Source of the DNA: Candidatus Tayloriibacteriota bacterium
Lineage (GTDB): Bacteria > Patescibacteriota > Minisyncoccia > Phycocordibacterales > CAIRYW01
Direction: 5' to 3'
NCBI GenBank assembly: GCA_028286725.1
Contig: JAQBQZ010000013.1
Span: 15,216 to 79,215, forward strand
Length of the DNA: 64,000 nucleotides
Shown here in pieces: positions 3,383 to 13,691 of the stretch. Positions within the stretch are counted from its first letter, which is position 1, and every line of letters begins with the position of its first letter. The notes under the pieces are model-generated. The model had not been told where the DNA came from. It worked only from the letters and a program-made list of their open reading frames with translations, and did not search any database. The translations under genes and the position numbers were made by a program.

Positions 3383-3424
3383 CGATAGCAAGTGCGGGGC
3401 ACTTGCGTACAGGACTCGAAAACC
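3383..3424. repeat. inverted partial copy of the tRNA-Val 3-prime half, interrupted by a 20-nt hairpin
   Basis: gggcgata [gcaagtgcggggcacttgcg] tacaggactcgaa is the reverse complement of ttcgagtcctgtatcgccc with a hairpin inserted. Confidence 0.55.
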
Positions 3425-3556
3425 TTTTGAGCCTAAAATTGATTTCAAGAAAATTTTAGCCAAAAGGTGTACTGCGACTGTAAGTCGAGAGTTCCTGGTA
3501 CAGGACTCAAACATAAAAAAACTGGGCTTGATTGTTCATCAGCCCAGTATAATAGT

Positions 3557-7687: not shown

Positions 7688-8623
7688 CTAATTTTTATAT
7701 ACGATCTTTGTTGTGTGTTTTACTAGTTTTTCAAATTTATCAAAAAAAGTAAGACAGATTATTGCGCAGATTATATTGAAGAGAAAATGTGCGTTCACTA
7801 TTTGCTGAGTCTCGTCTGTGCTTATGATTTGGAGGAGCGACATGAATGGGTCTATAAGTGGAATGAATATTGCAACTCCAATAATATTAAAAAGTACTTG
7901 AGCTATCGCCACTTTCTTTGCTTCAAAAGCGGCACTTGTGCTTGCAATGATAGCTGTAAATGGAGAACCAATATTTGAGCCAAGCATAAATCCGATTGCG
8001 GCCGGGAGAGTGATAAGTCCCTGAGCGCCGAGAATGATTATAACTCCAGTGAACACTGAACTTGATTGAAGTATCGCTGTGATGATCGCTCCTGCGACTA
8101 TTGCCTTGTATGGATTCGACATTGCGACAAGAATGTTTTGGAAATCGACATTATCTTTAAGCGGAGAAACTATATTTGAAATAATAAAGAGCGAAAGGAA
8201 TATGATTCCAAAATAAAAGATGGCTTTGCCGTATCTTTTGAATCGAGTTTTCGTGTGAGAAATAATAAATCCAGCGATCACAATGATTGGTGCAATATAT
8301 GTCATGTTGAGAGCGATGAGTTGGGCACTGATCGATGGGCCAATATTGGCACCAATCACCACACCGAGCGCGTTTCGTGATGTGATGATACTTGCGTTTA
8401 CGAGGCCTACGAGGATAACTGTGGTAGCGGTAGATGATTGAAGGATGGTTGTGATAAGTGTGCCACTCAATGTCCCTTTGATCGGCGTATTAGTCCAATT
8501 ATTTAAAATATTTTTAAGCTTATCGCCAGCAACTCGCTGAATTTGGTGGCTGAATTTTTGAACAGCAAAGAGAAATACGATAATGAGAGAGAAGACTGTT
8601 GTAATGATCGTGCTTGTATCCAT
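7688..8623 (-). CDS. Na/Pi cotransporter family membrane protein (NptA/YjbB-like)
   Basis: Duplicated QSSTATTVILVGL / QSSSVFTGVIIILG motifs. Confidence 0.55.
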   Translation of the reverse strand: MDTSTIITTVFSLIIVFLFAVQKFSHQIQRVAGDKLKNILNNWTNTPIKGTLSGTLITTILQSSTATTVILVGLVNASIITSRNALGVVIGANIGPSISAQLIALNMTYIAPIIVIAGFIISHTKTRFKRYGKAIFYFGIIFLSLFIISNIVSPLKDNVDFQNILVAMSNPYKAIVAGAIITAILQSSSVFTGVIIILGAQGLITLPAAIGFMLGSNIGSPFTAIIASTSAAFEAKKVAIAQVLFNIIGVAIFIPLIDPFMSLLQIISTDETQQIVNAHFLFNIICAIICLTFFDKFEKLVKHTTKIVYKN

Positions 8624-8702
8624 GTGTGTTTTTGTTCATATTATTGTATCAGAAAAACAAAAAGTTGAAATTATCTCAAATTTTAGTAGTATAGGCTCTA
8701 AT

Positions 8703-8786
8703 GCGCGGGTGGCGAAATTGGTAGACGCACTACCTTGAGGTGGTAGCGCCCGTAAGGGTATGGAAGTTCGAGTCTTCTCTCGCGCA
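8703..8786 (+). tRNA. tRNA-Leu (anticodon GAG), long variable arm
   Basis: Acceptor GCGCGGG/CTCGCGC with one G-U pair, 3-bp D stem, anticodon loop TTGAGGT, variable arm CGCCCGTAAGGGTAT, T-arm GGAAG TTCGAGT CTTCT, discriminator A. Confidence 0.8.
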
Positions 8787-8801
8787 CAAAACGGTATTTC
8801 A

Positions 8802-8827
8802 AAAAAGAGCCCTGCGGCTCTTTTTTG
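8802..8827 (+). terminator. terminator after tRNA-Leu
   Basis: aaaaaagagccctgcggctctttttt. Confidence 0.6.
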
Positions 8828-8956
8828 CGTTTTGTGCGAGCCGGAATATATGGCTTTGCCATAATGAGGCGGGGTCGCAAGTACTTAGTAGAATTCAAGC
8901 GAAGCGAAGAATTATACTTAGTAACTTGTGACCACAAAATATACAAAAAACTGTAA

Positions 8957-9005
8957 GTTTCGAGTTCTTCTCTATAAGACTGTGCCCGAGTCTTCTCTCG
9001 CGCAC
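8957..9005. repeat. two tandem partial direct copies of the tRNA-Leu 3-prime end
   Basis: ttcgagttcttctct ... ccgagtcttctctcgcgcac, against tRNA ttcgagtcttctctcgcgcac. Confidence 0.6.
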
Positions 9006-9188
9006 CCTTGTATTCTTTACCCATGTTGACCACAAACCTTCTCACTTTCCTGCATTTATGTCCCAATTTTCTCCCTCGCACCCCAACCTCTCCCTCCCTC
9101 GTATACTTATCCATAGGTCGCTGTATTACCAGGCTTAATTTTCTTTATATTCAAAATTTCAATTAATCTAACAAAATCAATAAAACTT

Positions 9189-9913: not shown

Positions 9914-10663
9914 ATGAAAAAAAGACATCTCGGAGTTTTAATACTTATAATTATTCTTGCGTTTGTTGCAGGATATTTGTGGCAGGTAACACACAAACTG
10001 GGAGAGCTCAAATCTTCCATTCAAGAAATCAGATTTGGAGGAAAGCAAGATAAATATGAGATAGATGCAGCATACCCAGTGATCGAATCAGGAGTGCCAG
10101 AAAACATAAAAAACAGCATCAATACAGAGCTTGAAAAGTGGGCAAGAGATGGGGCAGAAAAAAGCAAATCAGAATTTGAAGATCTTTTGAAGGATCCAGA
10201 GCTTGCAGGCTCTGATCTCGGGCTTATGTATTCAAGTACTGTGTCCGTCAAAAGCGATTTCAAAAAACTTCCGTACATCAATGTTTCTTTTGAAATCTAT
10301 GATTATTCTGGAGGGGCGCACGGGATCACCGCAGTTTCAACATTTGTCTATGACGCGAATACTGGAGAGAAAATAACTCTAGATAAAGTATTCTCTGGAA
10401 ATTATTTAAATACGCTTTCAACGCTCTCGCTTGCCGAGCTCAAAAAAACAGATCCAAAACTTGAGACATATAGTTTTGCGGAAGATGGGACAAAGCCTGT
10501 GGCTGACAACTTCCAAACATGGACTCTCGAACCTGATGGAATACATTTTGTGTTTAGTGATTATCAGGTTGGTCCATACTCTAGCGGAAGACCAGAGATC
10601 GTACTTTCTTATGAATCGCTAAATAGCGTTCTTAATCCAGAATTCAAGAAATCTCTTTATTAA
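9914..10663 (+). CDS. membrane-anchored DUF4163/DUF3298-type protein
   Basis: N-terminal TM; YPVIESGVPENIKNSINTELEKWA and SGGAHGITAVSTFVYD motifs. Confidence 0.5.
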   Translation: MKKRHLGVLILIIILAFVAGYLWQVTHKLGELKSSIQEIRFGGKQDKYEIDAAYPVIESGVPENIKNSINTELEKWARDGAEKSKSEFEDLLKDPELAGSDLGLMYSSTVSVKSDFKKLPYINVSFEIYDYSGGAHGITAVSTFVYDANTGEKITLDKVFSGNYLNTLSTLSLAELKKTDPKLETYSFAEDGTKPVADNFQTWTLEPDGIHFVFSDYQVGPYSSGRPEIVLSYESLNSVLNPEFKKSLY

Positions 10664-10742
10664 TAGGCTATCAAAAGAAATACTAGATTTATATTGATTT
10701 TTCTGGTATAAATTGATTACTTCATATTTTTGAAGGATGTAT

Positions 10743-10814
10743 GGCGACTATAGTTTAGTGGCAAAACTCCGGTTTGTGGAACCGGTATCGAGAGTTCGAT
10801 TCTCTCTAGCCGCC
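10743..10814 (+). tRNA. tRNA-His (anticodon GTG) with encoded G-1
   Basis: Extra 5-prime G pairs with discriminator C73. Acceptor GCGACTA/TAGCCGC has one A-C mismatch. D-arm GTTT AGTGGCA AAAC, anticodon CCGGT TTGTGGA ACCGG, T-arm GAGAG TTCGATT CTCTC. Confidence 0.75.
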
Positions 10815-10829
10815 CATGATTTAAAAAAG

Positions 10830-10860
10830 AAAACACCCTCTGCTGGGTGTTTTCTTTTTT
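10830..10860 (+). terminator. terminator after tRNA-His
   Basis: aaaacaccctctgctgggtgtttt followed by a T-run. Confidence 0.6.
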
Positions 10861-10872
10861 AATCACAGCGAA

Positions 10873-11104
10873 GCTAGAGAGAATCGAATGGCGGAGGCAT
10901 ATTTTCTGAGTACAGAAAATGCCGAGCCGGTGCCCAGGACAAATACGAGCGACGGCGAGTATTTAGTCCGCGGGCGATTCTCTCTAGCCCTCGGGGACTT
11001 GCGTGAGAGAATCGAAGCCCGATTGAGCAAATTTTGAGAGTGAAGCGAATCAAAATTTCCAATCGGGATACTGGTCGTGTAACGACCGATAGCTCTCTAG
11101 CCGC
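10873..11104. repeat. cluster of four partial tRNA-His 3-prime-half copies, alternating inverted and direct
   Basis: A inverted 10873-10888 gctagagagaatcgaa; B direct 10976-10990 cgattctctctagcc; C inverted 11005-11016 gagagaatcgaa; D direct 11088-11104 cgatagctctctagccgc. B and C form a long imperfect hairpin. Confidence 0.7.
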
Positions 11105-11129
11105 TTCCCAAATCTGCTATAATTATCTA

Positions 11130-11750
11130 ATGACCACCCTCCCAATTATCGGTATGAGCCCAGGCAATAGCTACTTTAAATATGGAGTAGTAAAAGAATT
11201 ACTTCAGAAAGTTGTAGAGAAATATGGAAAAGCTGCAATCATGATTGCCGATGTTCCAGCGATTTCAACTTATGTTGCACTTGGGTATCCTCAGAATAGA
11301 GCAAGAAGGGATAAAGCTCTTCCTCAAGGTAATGCGCTCAAAAATAAAGTTAAGAAAGCTATGGTTGAATTAGGCTACAGCGCAGATCAAGTGATAATTA
11401 TTGATTGGAAAAATCAAATTGAAAATAATTCAGAATACAAAGAAAAATATAGTTTGATAGAAGGGTTGTATCAAACCAATTCTTTGTTTCAAAACGCTGC
11501 AGACGCTACGACAAAAGGTATATTGGCTGGCGCAGGCGAGGAGATTCTTGATTTACCTGATTCAATAAAAATCGCTGCGCATTATCTCTTGGCAGAGATC
11601 GCTTTTATGGAATTTGCTCCAGACTTTTTGAAAGTAAAAAAGGCTACATATATTTACCATAGAAGCTGGCCAGTATTTGAAAGTTATATAGACGGGAAGT
11701 TTGATGATAAATCAAAAGATTATTTAGGATTTGAGATTATTGAGATTTAA
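11130..11750 (+). CDS. tRNA-dependent cyclodipeptide synthase (CDPS, AlbC-like)
   Basis: GMSPGNSYF pocket motif (AlbC has GISAGNSYF, with the catalytic Ser), HYLLAEIAF (Y-x-x-x-E pair) and ATYIYH. Start at 11130 (MTTLPIIG) preferred; the ORF is open from 11034 through repeat D. Confidence 0.7.
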   Translation: MTTLPIIGMSPGNSYFKYGVVKELLQKVVEKYGKAAIMIADVPAISTYVALGYPQNRARRDKALPQGNALKNKVKKAMVELGYSADQVIIIDWKNQIENNSEYKEKYSLIEGLYQTNSLFQNAADATTKGILAGAGEEILDLPDSIKIAAHYLLAEIAFMEFAPDFLKVKKATYIYHRSWPVFESYIDGKFDDKSKDYLGFEIIEI

Positions 11751-11773
11751 AAGTTATGAGAGGAATTACATTT

Positions 11774-11791
11774 GTTCAATTCTCTCCAGCC
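11774..11791. repeat. direct repeat of the tRNA-His 3-prime end (attR-like), just after the CDPS gene
   Basis: gttcaattctctccagcc against tRNA gttcgattctctctagcc, 16 of 18 identical. Confidence 0.6.
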
Positions 11792-11817
11792 TTATTTTTT
11801 TTGCTATACTTTAAATT

Positions 11818-12411
11818 ATGGGCGACTATAAAACTATCATAAGCATTATTGCGGTTCTTCTCGTTCTAATTGGTTATTTTTCCTATATTCGCGATATTTT
11901 TAAAACAAAAACTACTCCTCATCTTTTTACGTGGTTCATTTGGTCACTTGCTGTTAGTGTTTCTGCCGCGTTACAGATCTTGGGAGGAGCGGGGGTAGGG
12001 GCGTGGACAACCATTGTGACCGCATTGGTCTGTTGTTTTATTCTCTTTCTTTCTTTTAAATATGGAGATAAAAATTATAGTAAGAGTGATATTTTATTTT
12101 TAGCTCTCGCTTTAATTTCTTTAGCGCTTTGGGTTTTTGTAAAACAGCCAGTCTGGTCAGTTGTCCTGATCGTCGCAACTGATATTCTTGGATTTGTTCC
12201 AACAGTAAGAAAGTCTTGGGATAAACCCTATTCAGAAACACTTTCAACTTATCAAATCACGGGCCTTCGTCATGCTTTGAGTATTGTTGCTCTTGAGAAA
12301 TTAAATATTCTCACACTTCTTTATCCTGTTGCTTGGACTTTGGCTAATATCCTATTTAGTATTATGCTTATAATAAGAAGAAAAATGATTAAGAGTGGAG
12401 ATCTGCTCTAG
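11818..12411 (+). CDS. hypothetical 6-TM membrane protein
   Basis: Hydrophobic helices throughout; lies outside the attR-like repeat. Confidence 0.45.
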   Translation: MGDYKTIISIIAVLLVLIGYFSYIRDIFKTKTTPHLFTWFIWSLAVSVSAALQILGGAGVGAWTTIVTALVCCFILFLSFKYGDKNYSKSDILFLALALISLALWVFVKQPVWSVVLIVATDILGFVPTVRKSWDKPYSETLSTYQITGLRHALSIVALEKLNILTLLYPVAWTLANILFSIMLIIRRKMIKSGDLL

Positions 12412-13258
12412 TTTTTTCGCTCAACCTATTTGCTTTTAAATACGCCAATGCACCATACAAGCCGGTTTCATCTCCTAGAGATGCTTTTATAATCGGTGGA
12501 ATTTTTGGAAAAATCGTTTCCATTTTTTTGAGATAGTCTTTAACTAGCGGTATAGAAATATGTGATTTTCCGAGCATCATCGAACCTCCTAAAATGATGA
12601 CATCTGGTGTCCAAAATACAATTACGTTGTTCAAACCTACAGCCAGATTTTGTGCTGCCTCATTCCATATTTTCGGATCTTTTATATTCTCTGCATCTCT
12701 GCCGTATCGATTTTGAAATGCTGTTCCTGAAATATAAGCTTCAAGATGTCCTTTACCTCTACATCCACAAAATAATCCTTCCGGCGCAATGATCTGATGT
12801 CCTGGCTCAAATCCAATGAGACCTTTCCCGATATTTTTATAAGCAATTCTCGCGCCTCCTACACCTGTTGATACTGTCAGATATGCGACAATGTTAAAAC
12901 GTTTTCCTTTCCCAAATACTGCTTCGCCCAAACCTGCTGCCACCGTGTCGTTTAGAATCTTAACAGGAACACCGATCGCTTTTTCTAAGGAATTTTTGAG
13001 TGGTTTCCCTGACCATTCTTTTTTGTTGGGTGAATTTATAATCTTCTCTCCCTTTTTGTCGAGAAGACCTGCAATGCATCCGACACATTTATCAATTTTT
13101 TCTCCTTTGGATAATTCTTTTGCAGTTTCTTTAAAGAGGGTGATCCCATCTTTGAAACTCTCTGGGGTACCAACTATCTTGGATCTCAAAATAGTCTTAC
13201 TGTTTTTGGATACGGCTAGTCGCATTTTGGTTCCTCCAATATCAAAAATGAGAATCAT
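12389..13258 (-). CDS. ROK-family sugar kinase (glucokinase-like)
   Basis: N-terminal DIGGT and a CGCRGKGHLE zinc motif. Confidence 0.7.
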   Translation of the reverse strand: MILIFDIGGTKMRLAVSKNSKTILRSKIVGTPESFKDGITLFKETAKELSKGEKIDKCVGCIAGLLDKKGEKIINSPNKKEWSGKPLKNSLEKAIGVPVKILNDTVAAGLGEAVFGKGKRFNIVAYLTVSTGVGGARIAYKNIGKGLIGFEPGHQIIAPEGLFCGCRGKGHLEAYISGTAFQNRYGRDAENIKDPKIWNEAAQNLAVGLNNVIVFWTPDVIILGGSMMLGKSHISIPLVKDYLKKMETIFPKIPPIIKASLGDETGLYGALAYLKANRLSEKTRADLHS

Positions 13259-13322: not shown

Positions 13323-13691
13323 ATGAAATCCTCAACACAACCAGCGTCTCAAATCTGCTCTATTTGTCATGCGTCAATACTGCCTTCATATTATTTCTGT
13401 CCAAACTGCGGCAATAAAGTAAACACTCCACCTCTCTCAACATCAATTACAACTCAGATCGGTATCTATGCTTTTAGTATCATTCTTCCAATGATTGGTT
13501 TTATACTTGTGACTAAATGGCCCGGAGTTCAATATTTCAAATCAAAAGATGAGAAAACAAAAAAGATCGGGATCATCGCATGGTCTCTTCTTATACTTTC
13601 AACACTCATCACGATCTGGCTTGCGTATATATGGACGCTCGACACGATTCAGTCGGTAAGTCAGAGTATTAATACAGACATGGGCTTTTAA
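13323..13691 (+). CDS. zinc-ribbon-containing membrane protein
   Basis: CSIC...CPNCG followed by TM helices. Confidence 0.4.
   Translation: MKSSTQPASQICSICHASILPSYYFCPNCGNKVNTPPLSTSITTQIGIYAFSIILPMIGFILVTKWPGVQYFKSKDEKTKKIGIIAWSLLILSTLITIWLAYIWTLDTIQSVSQSINTDMGF

Follow-up and report, generated by a model that had tools for sequence, protein, structure and literature searches.

The tRNA-His locus and its repeated 3′ segment

The window, by which we mean the whole 64-kb stretch of DNA that was analyzed, comes from a Ca. Taylorbacteria (Patescibacteria) MAG, identified through an identical database protein (P0001). At 10743–11795 it contains a tRNA-His gene, a series of partial copies of the 3′ end of that tRNA, and a gene for a cyclodipeptide synthase (CDPS). 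The unit of repetition is a short segment, here called X, and inverted copies of it are designated X′.

10744–10815, plus strand: tRNA-His(GTG) gene, with G-1 at 10743 (ARAGORN; Rfam tRNA, 61.3 bits)
10797–10811: segment X, CGATTCTCTCTAGCC, from C56 of the T-loop into the acceptor 3′ strand
10823–10860: hairpin AAAAAAGAAAACACCC-TCTGCT-GGGTGTTTTCTTTTTT, with an A-run before and a T-run after
10872/3–10888: copy A, inverted, the X′ of a type-1 module
10972–10989: copy B, direct, 16/18 (X proper, 10975–10989)
11005–11016/11017: copy C, inverted, 12/12, the X′b of a type-2 module
11093–11104: copy D, CTCTCTAGCCGC, direct, 12/12
11774–11791: copy E, GTTCAATTCTCTCCAGCC, direct, 16/18 (X, 11778–11791)

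The five tRNA 3′-segment copies are real and exceed chance: with up to three mismatches allowed, the 18-mer has four matches in the 64 kb where 0.05 are expected (0/100 shuffles), and every match is confined to 10794–11791. The first-pass annotation had described these copies, including their alternating orientations, correctly in the main, except that copy D begins at 11093 rather than 11088. Copy E, a 16/18 direct copy as claimed, starts 23 nt past the CDPS stop codon (11748–11750). The four direct occurrences of X (10797–10811, 10975–10989, 11093–11104 and 11778–11791) provide the tRNA 3′ repeat by which tRNA-targeted islands are recognized.

Immediately downstream of the tRNA, the 10823–10860 hairpin is the tip of an imperfect palindrome with 44-nt arms (10795–10838 and 10845–10888), which pairs the tRNA-His 3′ end with copy A (inverted repeat I1). 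From its sequence, this hairpin is the probable terminator of the tRNA transcript; it was not among the calls of a simple terminator scan. As a separate observation, the start of the ORF at 11818 (ATGGGCGACTATAA) resembles the tRNA-His 5′ end, a look-alike that was set aside with 13-mers near chance (4 found, 0.82 expected).

Structured modules with arms that copy the preceding tRNA

The four copies between the tRNA and the CDPS gene were first taken for possible scars of repeated integration and excision. They are instead the paired arms (X′/X) of two modules, which belong to tRNA-linked families unconnected to CDPS.

10873–10989, plus strand: type-1 module, consisting of X′ (copy A), hairpin P2, a junction, hairpin P3 and X (copy B)
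10896–10923: type-1 hairpin P2, separated from P3 by the junction CGAGCCGGTGCCCAG
10937–10969: type-1 hairpin P3, loop GAGCGACGGCGAG
10995–11104, plus strand: type-2 module, 5′-truncated
11018–11068: type-2 long hairpin
11073–11087: type-2 short hairpin

The suspicion that this region is structured is borne out by folding: the intergenic stretch 10862–11129, with a GC content of 52–57% versus about 37% nearby, gives z = −6.2 on the plus strand and −7.6 on the minus strand. The favored and evolutionarily conserved pairings are A:B, which makes up the 14-bp type-1 stem P1, and C:D, in place of the long B:C hairpin proposed at first; 10 bp could form between B and C, yet this pairing is neither part of the minimum-free-energy fold nor conserved. 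The type-1 module scores 102 bits against model R1 and has a homolog in locus L013. The type-2 module, judged truncated by alignment to full-length copies in L198 and L194, retains the 3′ half of hairpin P0, then X′b (copy C) and X (copy D), and its nhmmer family matches adjoin tRNAs. All three tRNAs of the window (3/3) carry such modules. When Rfam was run at gathering threshold on the whole window, only tRNA reached the gathering score; at E ≤ 10 over 10650–11900 no match fell in the type-1 or type-2 cores, and the weak sub-threshold matches in 10816–11129 (miRNA-precursor, ohsC and rnk-leader models, 16.8–32.1 bits) fall on the terminator palindrome alone, as far as 10892. We also dismissed a tRNA-primer (PBS-like) role for X′, since its partner is the genomic trailer instead of CCA and, in the window, it spans no more than an internal stretch.

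A scan of metagenomes for the type-1 motif returned at least 120 loci. Among the matches listed, 77 of 130 follow a tRNA on the same strand at a distance of 67–177 nt, and another 8 are second units; 17 tRNA identities are represented, and the module arms equal the local tRNA in every case. About 13 further hits of the search pattern were false positives from coding DNA rich in GC and were discarded ahead of the alignment. The pattern also forced some "invariant" positions, at which a model match in L195 shows variation. The family comprises at least 78 members, always just downstream of a tRNA gene. In the alignment of 78 sequences (A3), 89.2% of cells pair, compared with 69.5% after shuffling and 36–46% after sliding; double changes occur in 26 of 34 pairs, and the covariation score is 0.507 versus 0.151 (0/500 shuffles). 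The type-1 family has a conserved three-way junction, and its arms copy whichever tRNA precedes it. The motif scan of viral contigs gave 0 matches. Our literature search turned up no account of Patescibacteria elements downstream of tRNAs or of tRNA cassettes; a paper on the tRNA group I introns of Patescibacteria deals with the anticodon loop alone. The family is apparently undescribed.

The cyclodipeptide synthase and its cassette

Beyond the modules lie the CDPS gene with its flanking signals, the rest of the variable island (11818–13258) and a conserved right flank.

11115–11123, plus strand: TGCTATAAT, putative extended −10 promoter (from consensus) in the CDPS cassette
11130–11750, plus strand: CDPS gene, 206 aa, NYH-type
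11758–11802, plus strand: cassette 3′ end module (X′, loop, X, T-run)
11758–11767: short X′ of this module, GAGAGGAATT
11794–11802: T-run after copy E
11818–12411, plus strand: 197-aa membrane protein gene
12389–13258, minus strand: ROK-family kinase gene
13323–13691: 122-aa Zn-ribbon membrane protein gene, conserved right flank

By sequence, catalytic residues and fold, 11130–11750 encodes a cyclodipeptide synthase of the NYH subfamily, as had been proposed from motifs. The ORF matches Pfam PF16715 (1.1e-28, 100.9 bits; cutoff 27) and TIGR04539 (2.1e-34, 119 bits; cutoff 45). Of its key residues (S10, N13, Y152, E156, Y176 and H177), the catalytic set S10, Y152, E156 and Y176, equivalent to AlbC S37, Y178, E182 and Y202, is invariant in 32 homologs, as is the NYH signature N13, Y176 and H177 (AlbC N40, Y202 and H203), and the catalytic residues align with GISPFNS, YVIAE and AYH of YvmC. 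The AlphaFold model (pLDDT 95.1, pTM 0.91) adopts the class-Ic aaRS-like Rossmann fold (TM up to 0.85). Its best 50 PDB matches are CDPSs without exception (50/50), with NYH members at TM 0.78–0.85, and among the structure matches are CDPSs in complex with acceptor-arm microhelices (PDB 9iam, 9iaj). The protein therefore shares HMM membership, the catalytic Ser/Tyr/Glu/Tyr, the N..YH signature and the Rossmann-like fold with the NYH enzymes AlbC, YvmC, Rv2275 and BtCDPS, at an identity to solved members of only 16–24% and with an N-terminus about 25 residues shorter, the match beginning at profile position 21 of 220. Presumably it condenses two aminoacyl-tRNAs to a cyclodipeptide, an activity that we predict from its family.

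Such enzymes had been called rare outside Actinobacteria, Firmicutes and Proteobacteria, which does not agree with the 166 homolog clusters (at 90% identity) and 71 species-level genomes found here, mostly Patescibacteria, nor with the Parcubacteria CDPS already characterized (PMC7613923). Judged by homology, the present protein is a member of a large uncharacterized NYH-like clade in Patescibacteria, DPANN and Melainabacteria. The products of the characterized enzyme, ParcuCDPS of Parcubacteria bacterium RAAC4_OD1_1, are cyclo(His-Pro) and cyclo(His-Glu) (PMC7613923, PMC5816076). Both are CDPSs from the same superphylum, and ParcuCDPS uses His-tRNA. However, its histidine use is not transferable to the CDPS here, because it belongs to the XYP rather than the NYH subfamily, has no sequence match to the present protein at E below 0.001, and reaches a structural TM-score of just 0.63. 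The CDPS is cargo, and nothing ties its function to tRNA-His.

The putative promoter TGCTATAAT lies downstream of copies A–D and is kept at the same position in L073 and L198; a similarly placed TGCTATCAT precedes a PALP gene in L194. The simple scan that did not list the tRNA terminator did not detect TGCTATAAT either. We infer from the consensus that it is the CDPS promoter and, since the ATG at 11130 follows after only six bases (11124–11129), that the mRNA has little or no leader. At the other end, the 11758–11802 module probably also terminates the CDPS transcript. The module AGAGGAATT-N8/9-CRATTCTCTC is common to the 3′ ends of the CDPS cassette and the L194 PALP cassette, and copy E and the terminal repeat of L194/L195 share a derived CAATTC change. 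The CDPS does sit, as first described, in a tRNA-His-anchored segment bounded by tRNA 3′-end copies with no integrase nearby. It had also been regarded as the sole cargo of an island of about 1 kb; comparison with relatives indicates that it is one cassette in a larger variable island, which includes the membrane protein and ROK-family kinase genes and reaches the conserved Zn-ribbon gene at 13323.

Content turnover at the orthologous site

The anticipated insertion polymorphism is present at the orthologous tRNA-His among L194, L195, L198 and the window. The identity between L194 and L195 is 99.3–99.9% as far as the end of tRNA-His and returns to this level at the last X; their inner content is wholly different. 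In L194 it amounts to 992 nt, holding a type-2 module, a type-1 fragment and a PALP (PLP-enzyme) gene at 7828–8604 flanked by identical CGATTCTCTCTAGCCGC; in L195 it is 155 nt with one type-1-like module and no gene. At the same site, L198/L199 and L073 carry X, then TGCTATAAT, then a CDPS gene 77–81% identical to the one here. Because near-identical relatives carry different content at this position, we regard the CDPS as a promoter-bearing cassette bounded by X. Three findings count against this: L073 lacks copy E after its CDPS gene, the next-closest homologs (65–67% identity) are in operons away from tRNAs, and flanking X-type repeats were not found at the CDPS genes beside other tRNAs (L007, L021, L029, L038, L046 and L072). 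L073 also lacks the genes for the 197-aa membrane protein and the ROK-family kinase, and L195 has other genes there.

Tandem arrays carry n+1 copies of X, as in L128, with two perfect 177-nt units and three X copies. Which X copy is ancestral, that is, whether the last X keeps the native CCA context, was addressed by a weak test: CC follows the discriminator in 9 of 72 first copies, 19 of 72 last copies and 36 of 149 element-free tRNAs.

By Pfam, no recombinase was found among the 20 ORFs of suitable size in the 64-kb window, in which RecA is present; a phmmer search of the window ORFs with a XerD-like query gave no match, and no cognate integrase was found inside the units. When the ORFs that neighbor modules were clustered, no protein family proved enriched; just 3 module loci have a XerD-like gene next to them, and none of the arrays was found to have a tyrosine recombinase nearby. 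In L196, the only case of a recombinase-bearing element at tRNA-His, the gene for a large serine recombinase ends within the tRNA-His 3′ end. In L102, two X copies of tRNA-Gly enclose a truncated recombinase gene, cargo and a type-1 module.

A tandem array of probably mobile units

On balance, we lean towards reading 10743–11795 as the tRNA-proximal part of a flexible tRNA-His island, made up of a three-unit tandem array built by recombination in trans within X. Each unit ends in an X copy, and the array has no integrase. Unit 1 (about 10812–10989) comprises the tRNA trailer and probable terminator followed by the type-1 module; unit 2 (10990–11104), the 5′-truncated type-2 module; and unit 3 (11105–11791), the extended −10 promoter, the leaderless NYH-type CDPS gene and the X′-loop-X hairpin, after which comes the T-run. 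The units would enter and leave through site-specific recombination within X, where identity usually starts at the T-loop CG, catalyzed by a recombinase that is encoded elsewhere and acts in trans; the best candidates may be the large serine recombinases found at tRNA 3′ ends in relatives. Every incoming unit would re-supply the tRNA 3′ end, so that older X copies shift downstream. The mobility of the units is deduced from comparing sequences. Our leading idea on the role of the structured modules is that a miniature non-autonomous element would use the folded X′/X stem, a copy of the T-arm and acceptor region of the target tRNA, as its recombination site or guide. We also observe that simple integration leaves unexplained the interleaving of X′a, X′b and X with constant hairpins.

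A broader and tentative proposal, which we consider possible but rather doubtful, is that Patescibacteria harbor undescribed miniature non-coding integrative elements and single-gene cassettes that home to the T-loop and 3′ end of virtually any tRNA gene under the guidance of pairing. The three-way junction would then act as a scaffold with exchangeable arms, X′a and X′b, complementary to the tRNA target, and a "guide" of folded DNA or RNA, instead of protein–DNA recognition alone, would pick the target; the CDPS cassette would be one cargo.

Several known systems resemble the array in part. Tycheposons and other tandem tRNA-anchored integrative elements (bioRxiv 10.1101/2020.12.28.424599) likewise place cargo units at tRNA genes with partial tRNA copies flanking them, and new arrivals displace older ones into a variable tRNA-anchored island. 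However, tycheposons are kb-sized and themselves encode a recombinase of the tyrosine or large serine type, frequently together with replication genes, whereas the units here measure 0.12–0.8 kb, have no recombinase and at most one cargo gene, and end in an X′-loop-X hairpin or a conserved three-way-junction module. With integrons the locus shares arrays of small single-gene or gene-less units, and with attC sites an imperfect inverted repeat at the unit end whose central part varies, structure more conserved than sequence, and a one-strand folding bias. Yet of the integron hallmarks (intI, attI, Pc promoter) there is no IntI gene and no attI; in place of the attC R″/L″-L′/R′ boxes and G|TT crossover, the boundaries here fall at C56 of the T-loop (CGATTC), and the inverted T-loop copy is on the inner stem side, where comparison with attC expects the outer. 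The cassettes also differ in having their own promoters and in using the 3′ end of the host tRNA as the repeat. Like CIMEs and MITEs, the modules are short, non-coding, present in many copies, bounded by parent recombination sites and presumably moved in trans. They differ from MITEs in that their arms change with the target tRNA, with no fixed terminal inverted repeat, and in a direct repeat that is 15 to over 75 nt long and is tied to the tRNA 3′ end, rather than a short target-site duplication; they differ from CIMEs and MITEs alike in their conserved, covarying internal fold.

Alternative explanations

There is a real, if minority, chance that the modules are small-RNA genes, expressed in the tRNA sense by read-through or processing, whose closing stem mimics the coaxial T-stem/acceptor helix of the neighboring tRNA. 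Such RNAs might have a part in tRNA biology, for instance by serving tRNA-binding enzymes as decoys or substrates; this would be compatible with mobility, but the X′/X arms would be retained by selection on the stem, not by recombination. In alignment A3 the plus strand (tRNA sense) folds better in 75 of 78 sequences, the P1 wobbles in that sense are of the G(X′):U(X) kind (32 vs 4), and the internal loops at GGAG/CGA and CGA/GAGA, of the tandem G-A/A-G type, are motifs typical of RNA. Moreover, freely covarying stems fit a single-stranded structure, not a double-stranded protein-binding site, and the solved CDPS–microhelix complexes lend some support. A terminator-like hairpin with a T-run, however, usually stands between tRNA and module, no conserved module promoter is evident, and no Rfam family matches; recombination is needed in any case, because modules swap between 99%-identical genomes and form perfect tandem units. 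Somewhat less likely is that the modules act, as folded single-stranded DNA, as recombination sites like integron attC or the CTX-phage attP(+) hairpin, the X′:X stem rebuilding a double-stranded tRNA target and the tRNA T-arm acting as an attI-like primary site. In the CTX model, a folded hairpin integrates as a single strand, and the order of direct X, loop, inverted X′, remainder and direct X fits such an event. Every unit ends in X′, a variable loop of 8–90 nt and X, structure is kept while sequence is not, and the single-gene units and the strand bias agree as well. Against this stand the lack of an adjacent IntI-like or other tyrosine recombinase, the cassettes' own promoters, the type-1 junction sequences, conserved unlike those of most attC sites, and the R-box (GTTRRRY), which does not map onto the unit boundaries because X starts at C56, not T54.

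An ordinary decayed island, in which a single old integration lost its integrase and left tRNA fragments as random debris, would account for the tRNA 3′-end direct repeat at both segment ends, the missing integrase and the degeneracy of copy E, but we think it improbable: the fragments are paired arms of conserved, covarying structures that recur beside many other tRNAs, including those of the window, and content turns over between near-identical genomes. More improbable still is a regulatory CDPS mRNA leader that senses or mimics tRNA, as the first-pass annotation had floated. The structures do lie upstream of the CDPS gene, and CDPSs bind tRNA acceptor arms. Nevertheless, the four copies would not belong to the leader, because TGCTATAAT, conserved in L073 and L198, comes after them and the mRNA appears leaderless; a T-box-like 5′-UTR is likewise at odds with structures upstream of TGCTATAAT, a position that reflects promoter consensus, not transcript mapping. 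The same modules also occur beside dozens of tRNAs without a CDPS, and most CDPS homologs are without structured modules.

Implications

On its own, the CDPS adds one more ordinary member to an enzyme family already known, although it marks a large uncharacterized NYH-like clade in ultra-small bacteria and archaea. Its setting is of greater value. Genome-reduced Patescibacteria are largely without classical mobile elements, and in them single genes may move as promoter-bearing mini-cassettes at tRNAs. At least two families of conserved, covarying modules have arms that copy the 3′ end of the preceding tRNA. Should the modules turn out to be recombination sites or guides, they would constitute a compact system that can be re-aimed at other tRNA targets; if they are RNAs, they would represent a new class of tRNA-mimicking RNA.

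The cyclodipeptide synthase and its relatives

The window derives from a Candidatus Taylorbacteria (Patescibacteria) MAG, and its ORF at 11130-11750, read on first pass as a cyclodipeptide synthase (CDPS), is one by every measure applied, being identical to NCBI protein JWP09_819 (P0001 in our protein search). It matches Pfam PF16715 (1.1e-28) and TIGR04539 (2.1e-34) far over cutoff, its best matches in a PDB sequence search are YvmC (3.7e-13), BtCDPS, cyclo(Leu-Leu) synthase, Rv2275 and AlbC, and S10, N13, Y152, E156, Y176 and H177 are invariant across 32 aligned homologs. On alignment, these residues are the counterparts of the catalytic Ser, Tyr, Glu and Tyr and of the NYH signature (AlbC numbering from PMC7613923). 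The top 50 structural matches of the AlphaFold model (pLDDT 95.1, pTM 0.91) are all CDPSs, with TM 0.78-0.85 to NYH members but only about 0.63 to the XYP-type ParcuCDPS. Identity of 16-24% is too low for predicting the product. A 238-aa ORF with a TTG start was set aside as a mechanical upstream extension.

The supposed rarity of such enzymes outside Actinobacteria, Firmicutes and Proteobacteria does not hold. The protein search returned 166 clusters at E <= 0.001 (46-77% identity), and scanning a single genome from each species gave 71 loci, predominantly in Patescibacteria, with others in DPANN archaea, Melainabacteria/Obscuribacterales and Bdellovibrionota. A Parcubacteria XYP-subfamily CDPS that makes cHis-Pro and cHis-Glu has already been characterised (PMC5816076, PMC7613923). 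Because 99% of the NYH enzymes in a 2018 overview belong to Actinobacteria, Firmicutes and Proteobacteria (PMC5816076), the NYH-like clade of the window protein, though annotated by NCBI, appears from open-access text to be uncharacterised. Fusions of a CDPS domain to a C-terminal solute-binding-protein domain occur in some Patescibacteria, as in a 493-aa ORF (comparison locus L020, 5908-7389) and in the database protein P0054 (PF00497 plus PF16715).

Structured modules between tRNA-His and the CDPS gene

The locus comprises the following features, in which copies A to E repeat the tRNA 3' segment (X; inverted, X'), and promoters and terminators were called by consensus.

10744-10815, tRNA-His(GTG), by ARAGORN and Rfam
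10823-10860, hairpin with flanking A- and T-runs, directly 3' of tRNA-His
10872/3-10888, copy A, inverted
10896-10923, type-1 hairpin P2
10937-10969, type-1 hairpin P3
10972-10989, copy B, direct
10995-11104, type-2 module
11005-11016, copy C, inverted
11093-11104, copy D, direct
11115-11123, TGCTATAAT, extended -10 element, directly 3' of copy D
11130-11750, CDPS ORF, 206 aa, N-terminus MTTLPIIGMSPGNSYF
11758-11802, 3' of the CDPS stop: GAGAGGAATT, 10 nt (ACATTTGTTC, 11768-11777), AATTCTCTCCAGCC and a T-run
11774-11791, copy E, direct, 16/18

The tRNA 18-mer, at up to 3 mismatches, has 4 matches in 64 kb (0.05 expected), all within ~1 kb. The 268 nt from terminator to CDPS are GC-rich (52-57% vs about 37%) and fold far better than shuffles (z = -6.2 and -7.6, one per strand). 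The hairpin after the tRNA caps a palindrome with 44-nt arms, in which copy A pairs with the 3' end of tRNA-His; copies A and B form the 14-bp P1 that closes a three-way junction (type 1), and copies C and D close a second, distinct junction (type 2).

Six bases (11124-11129) separate TGCTATAAT from the CDPS ATG, an arrangement that recurs in two relatives (L073 and L198), and by consensus the element is predicted to be a textbook extended -10 placed for a leaderless CDPS mRNA. Since it lies 3' of all four preceding copies, the structures would sit upstream of the CDPS promoter and not, as once speculated, in the CDPS leader. The gene after the CDPS cassette has its own TGcTATACT promoter (11802-11831); its start, ATGGGCGACTATAA, looks like the 5' end of tRNA-His with upstream AT (ATGGCGACTATAG), at a near-chance level of match.

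A family of tRNA-linked modules

When the window intergenic region was compared with the CDPS loci (BLAST, nhmmer), the sole match, 75% identical over 101 nt, lay in L013, 67 nt 3' of a tRNA-Arg and about 5 kb from that locus's CDPS. Its hairpins carry compensatory changes, its outer arms fit tRNA-Arg and not tRNA-His, and the tRNA 3' end with its trailer recurs around it as a 75-nt direct repeat. The type-1 core motif, CGAGSCGGTGSCCAG-N8-20-GCGACGGC, occurs at at least 120 metagenome loci (contigs without taxonomic labels) and has 0 matches in viral contigs. Among the 130 matches listed, 77 sit 67-177 nt past the end of a same-strand tRNA and 8 more at 230-295 nt, as second units; about 13 fall in GC-rich coding DNA and are false positives, and most others lie at contig ends. 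The preceding tRNAs span 17 amino-acid identities among the matches listed, in a census biased by the seed pattern, whose fixed motif positions are no evidence of invariance. The modules, with an X-to-X period of 136-211 nt, share one order.

1-3, tRNA with X; trailer/terminator hairpin; X'a, the acceptor-strand complement
4-5, hairpin P0; X'b, complement of the T-stem 3' strand and T-loop (...GGGAnTCGAAC)
6-8, GCCGGAGC; hairpin P2; CGAGGCGGTGCCCAG
9-11, hairpin P3; AGTCGCGGG; a second X, which stops at the discriminator base or just beyond it

In a clean alignment of 78 sequences (A3), RNAalifold finds 25 pairs, of which 17 carry compensatory changes; once P1 is included, 89.2% of cells pair, against 69.5% when shuffled and 36-46% when slid. 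Both sides change in 26 of 34 pairs, and the covariation score (0.507 vs 0.151) was attained by 0/500 shuffles. The tRNA-sense strand folds better in 75/78 sequences (mean advantage 5.8 kcal/mol), and in P1 the G(X'):U(X) wobbles outnumber the opposite type by about 32 to 4. This folding bias and wobble asymmetry show that the structure is selected in the + single strand, RNA or DNA. A covariance model, R1, recovered further, pattern-breaking members after tRNA-Val, tRNA-Leu, tRNA-His in L194/L195 and tRNA-Leu in L198; over 860 kb of CDPS and synteny loci it found nothing beyond L194/L195, L198, L013 and the window, and so few matches indicate a family limited to certain lineages.

In L158 (minus strand, about 350-420), one tRNA-Arg(CCT) X copy has a 19-nt hairpin insertion, CTGCCTGTCGGCAGGCAGG, exactly at the T-stem/acceptor boundary, mirroring the position of P0 within X', and the second array unit takes its arms from the acceptor part alone. 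In L150 (about 20-95), a type-1 module follows an ARAGORN 'tRNA-Stop' with anticodon TTA, possibly a suppressor or recoding tRNA.

Type-2 modules are full-length in L198 and L194, the window copy having no X'a and only half of P0, and weaker relatives lie directly 3' of tRNA-Leu, His, Glu and Cys in L099, L138, L108, L139 and L194/L195. In the window segment 3257-3520, tRNA-Val(TAC) has a perfect palindromic terminator with 30-bp arms covering its last 9 nt (ATCGCCCAC...GTGGGCGAT), followed by a type-2-like module with two inverted copies of its T-arm segment (TACAGGACTCGAA, 3408-3420; TACAGGACTCAAA, 3499-3511). In the segment 8703-9005, a terminator palindrome after tRNA-Leu(GAG) precedes a third-type element of roughly 200 nt that ends with an exact 19-nt copy of the tRNA-Leu 3' end (CGAGTCTTCTCTCGCGCAC, 8987-9005) and has a homolog after tRNA-Leu in L196/L197; a 138-aa ORF overlapping it (8698-9114, minus strand) is probably spurious. 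Such modules are thus present at 3/3 tRNA genes of the window. The scaffolds are, unexpectedly, the generic repeat family that the first-pass annotation had named as counting against its own reading, but their arms take the sequence of the local tRNA. Across all loci collected (221 tRNA genes scored of 225 found), the discriminator is apparently followed mostly by C-A-N and not CCA (e.g., CAA 24/72, 41/149).

Cassette turnover at orthologous tRNA-His genes

The upstream PdaC/DUF3298 protein served to locate relatives, which retain the order tRNA-Leu(GAG), PdaC gene, tRNA-His and all share a right flank, the gene for a 122-aa Zn-ribbon membrane protein (window 13323-13691). Past tRNA-His, L195 has one type-1-like module ending in X, a type-1 remnant and a degenerate terminal copy, CAATTCTCTCTGACTCCAGCCGCCCCA. 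Its counterpart L194 has a type-2 module, a type-1 fragment with X, a gene for a PLP-dependent enzyme and X, followed by L195's remnant and terminal copy. L194 and L195 agree at 99.3-99.9% as far as the end of the tRNA and resume this identity at the last X; the sequences enclosed, 992 nt and 155 nt respectively, are unrelated. The anticipated insertion polymorphism at an orthologous tRNA-His is thus present. The cassette missing from L195 (7828-8608 in L194) encodes a 258-aa protein (Pfam PALP, 6e-32) between two identical X copies; its promoter is TGCTATCAT, and its TAG stop is supplied by the next X (CTCTAGCC).

CDPS genes occupy this position in other relatives. L198/L199 carry a type-2 module, a type-1 fragment, X, TGCTATAAT and a CDPS 81% identical over the 95 aa available; L073 carries the 3' end of a type-1 module, X, TGCTATAAT and a CDPS 77% identical, followed directly by the Zn-ribbon gene, with copy E absent. 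The CDPS and PLP-enzyme cassettes have in common a 3' module, AGAGGAATT-N8/9-CRATTCTCTC. Because window copy E and the L194/L195 terminal copy share the derived CAATTC (for CGATTC), they are probably the same old copy. The L194/L195 terminal copy encodes a full CCA, as does the L196 tRNA, and present tRNA copies read ...GCCGCCCA.

Mechanism

These observations fit a model in which site-specific recombination inside X would move the units, the case for mobility being comparative throughout: arrays of n units have n+1 X copies (L128 holds two perfect 177-nt units), content swaps precisely between near-identical genomes, identity usually starts at the T-loop CG, and every proximal unit comes with a trailer and a terminator for the tRNA. 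Each incoming unit would re-supply the tRNA 3' end; classical tRNA-targeting elements do the same. Two features are not accounted for by the model: the alternation of target-derived segments with constant hairpins, and selection of the fold in a single strand. The strand bias, the wobble pattern and the G-A internal loops fit RNA genes mimicking the tRNA acceptor/T-arm, a reading that leaves the terminators, the absent promoters and the swapping unaccounted for. By analogy with attC or CTX attP, the modules could also be folded single-stranded-DNA sites; the order X, loop, X', remainder, X agrees, but the boundaries do not match R boxes and there is no cognate integrase. A plain decayed island with the CDPS as sole cargo, like a CDPS leader, is contradicted by the promoter placement, by the membership of the modules in a widespread, covarying, tRNA-linked family and by content that turns over between near-identical genomes.

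Under recombination in X, the enzyme would act in trans, since no recombinase gene was found in the units, in the window (in agreement with the integrase-free island first described) or consistently near modules. Large serine recombinases are the best lead, from few loci: L196, L102 and two where they neighbour CDPS genes, L002 and L203. In L196 (6813-8437, minus strand), a 520-aa large serine recombinase gene has its last codons within the 3' end of a tRNA-His copy encoding full CCA, with its stop codon in CTCTAGCC; no X repeats follow that tRNA. L102 alone physically joins a recombinase gene to a type-1 module: the segment between two tRNA-Gly(TCC) X copies (283-1870) holds a truncated recombinase gene (Zn_ribbon_recom, 26.2 bits vs cutoff 25.3), an HExxH metallopeptidase-like ORF and the module, an arrangement that suggests the small modules may be miniature derivatives of recombinase-bearing elements.

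CDPS genes, tRNAs and mobility

CDPS genes in general are only weakly linked to tRNAs. In 6-7 of the 71 species-level loci the first gene downstream of a tRNA (Ser, Gly, Leu, Gln) is a CDPS, or its remnant (L072), and no flanking repeats were found at these loci; the closest homologs outside the Taylorbacteria-like group sit in operons. Nothing points to the window CDPS using His-tRNA. Large serine recombinase genes or fragments lie beside or around CDPS genes at L002 6866-8266, L203 1608-2555 and 8319-8633, and L003 1099-1986. These loci, with the two genes adjacent in L002 and L203, suggest that CDPS travels on mobile elements more widely in Patescibacteria.
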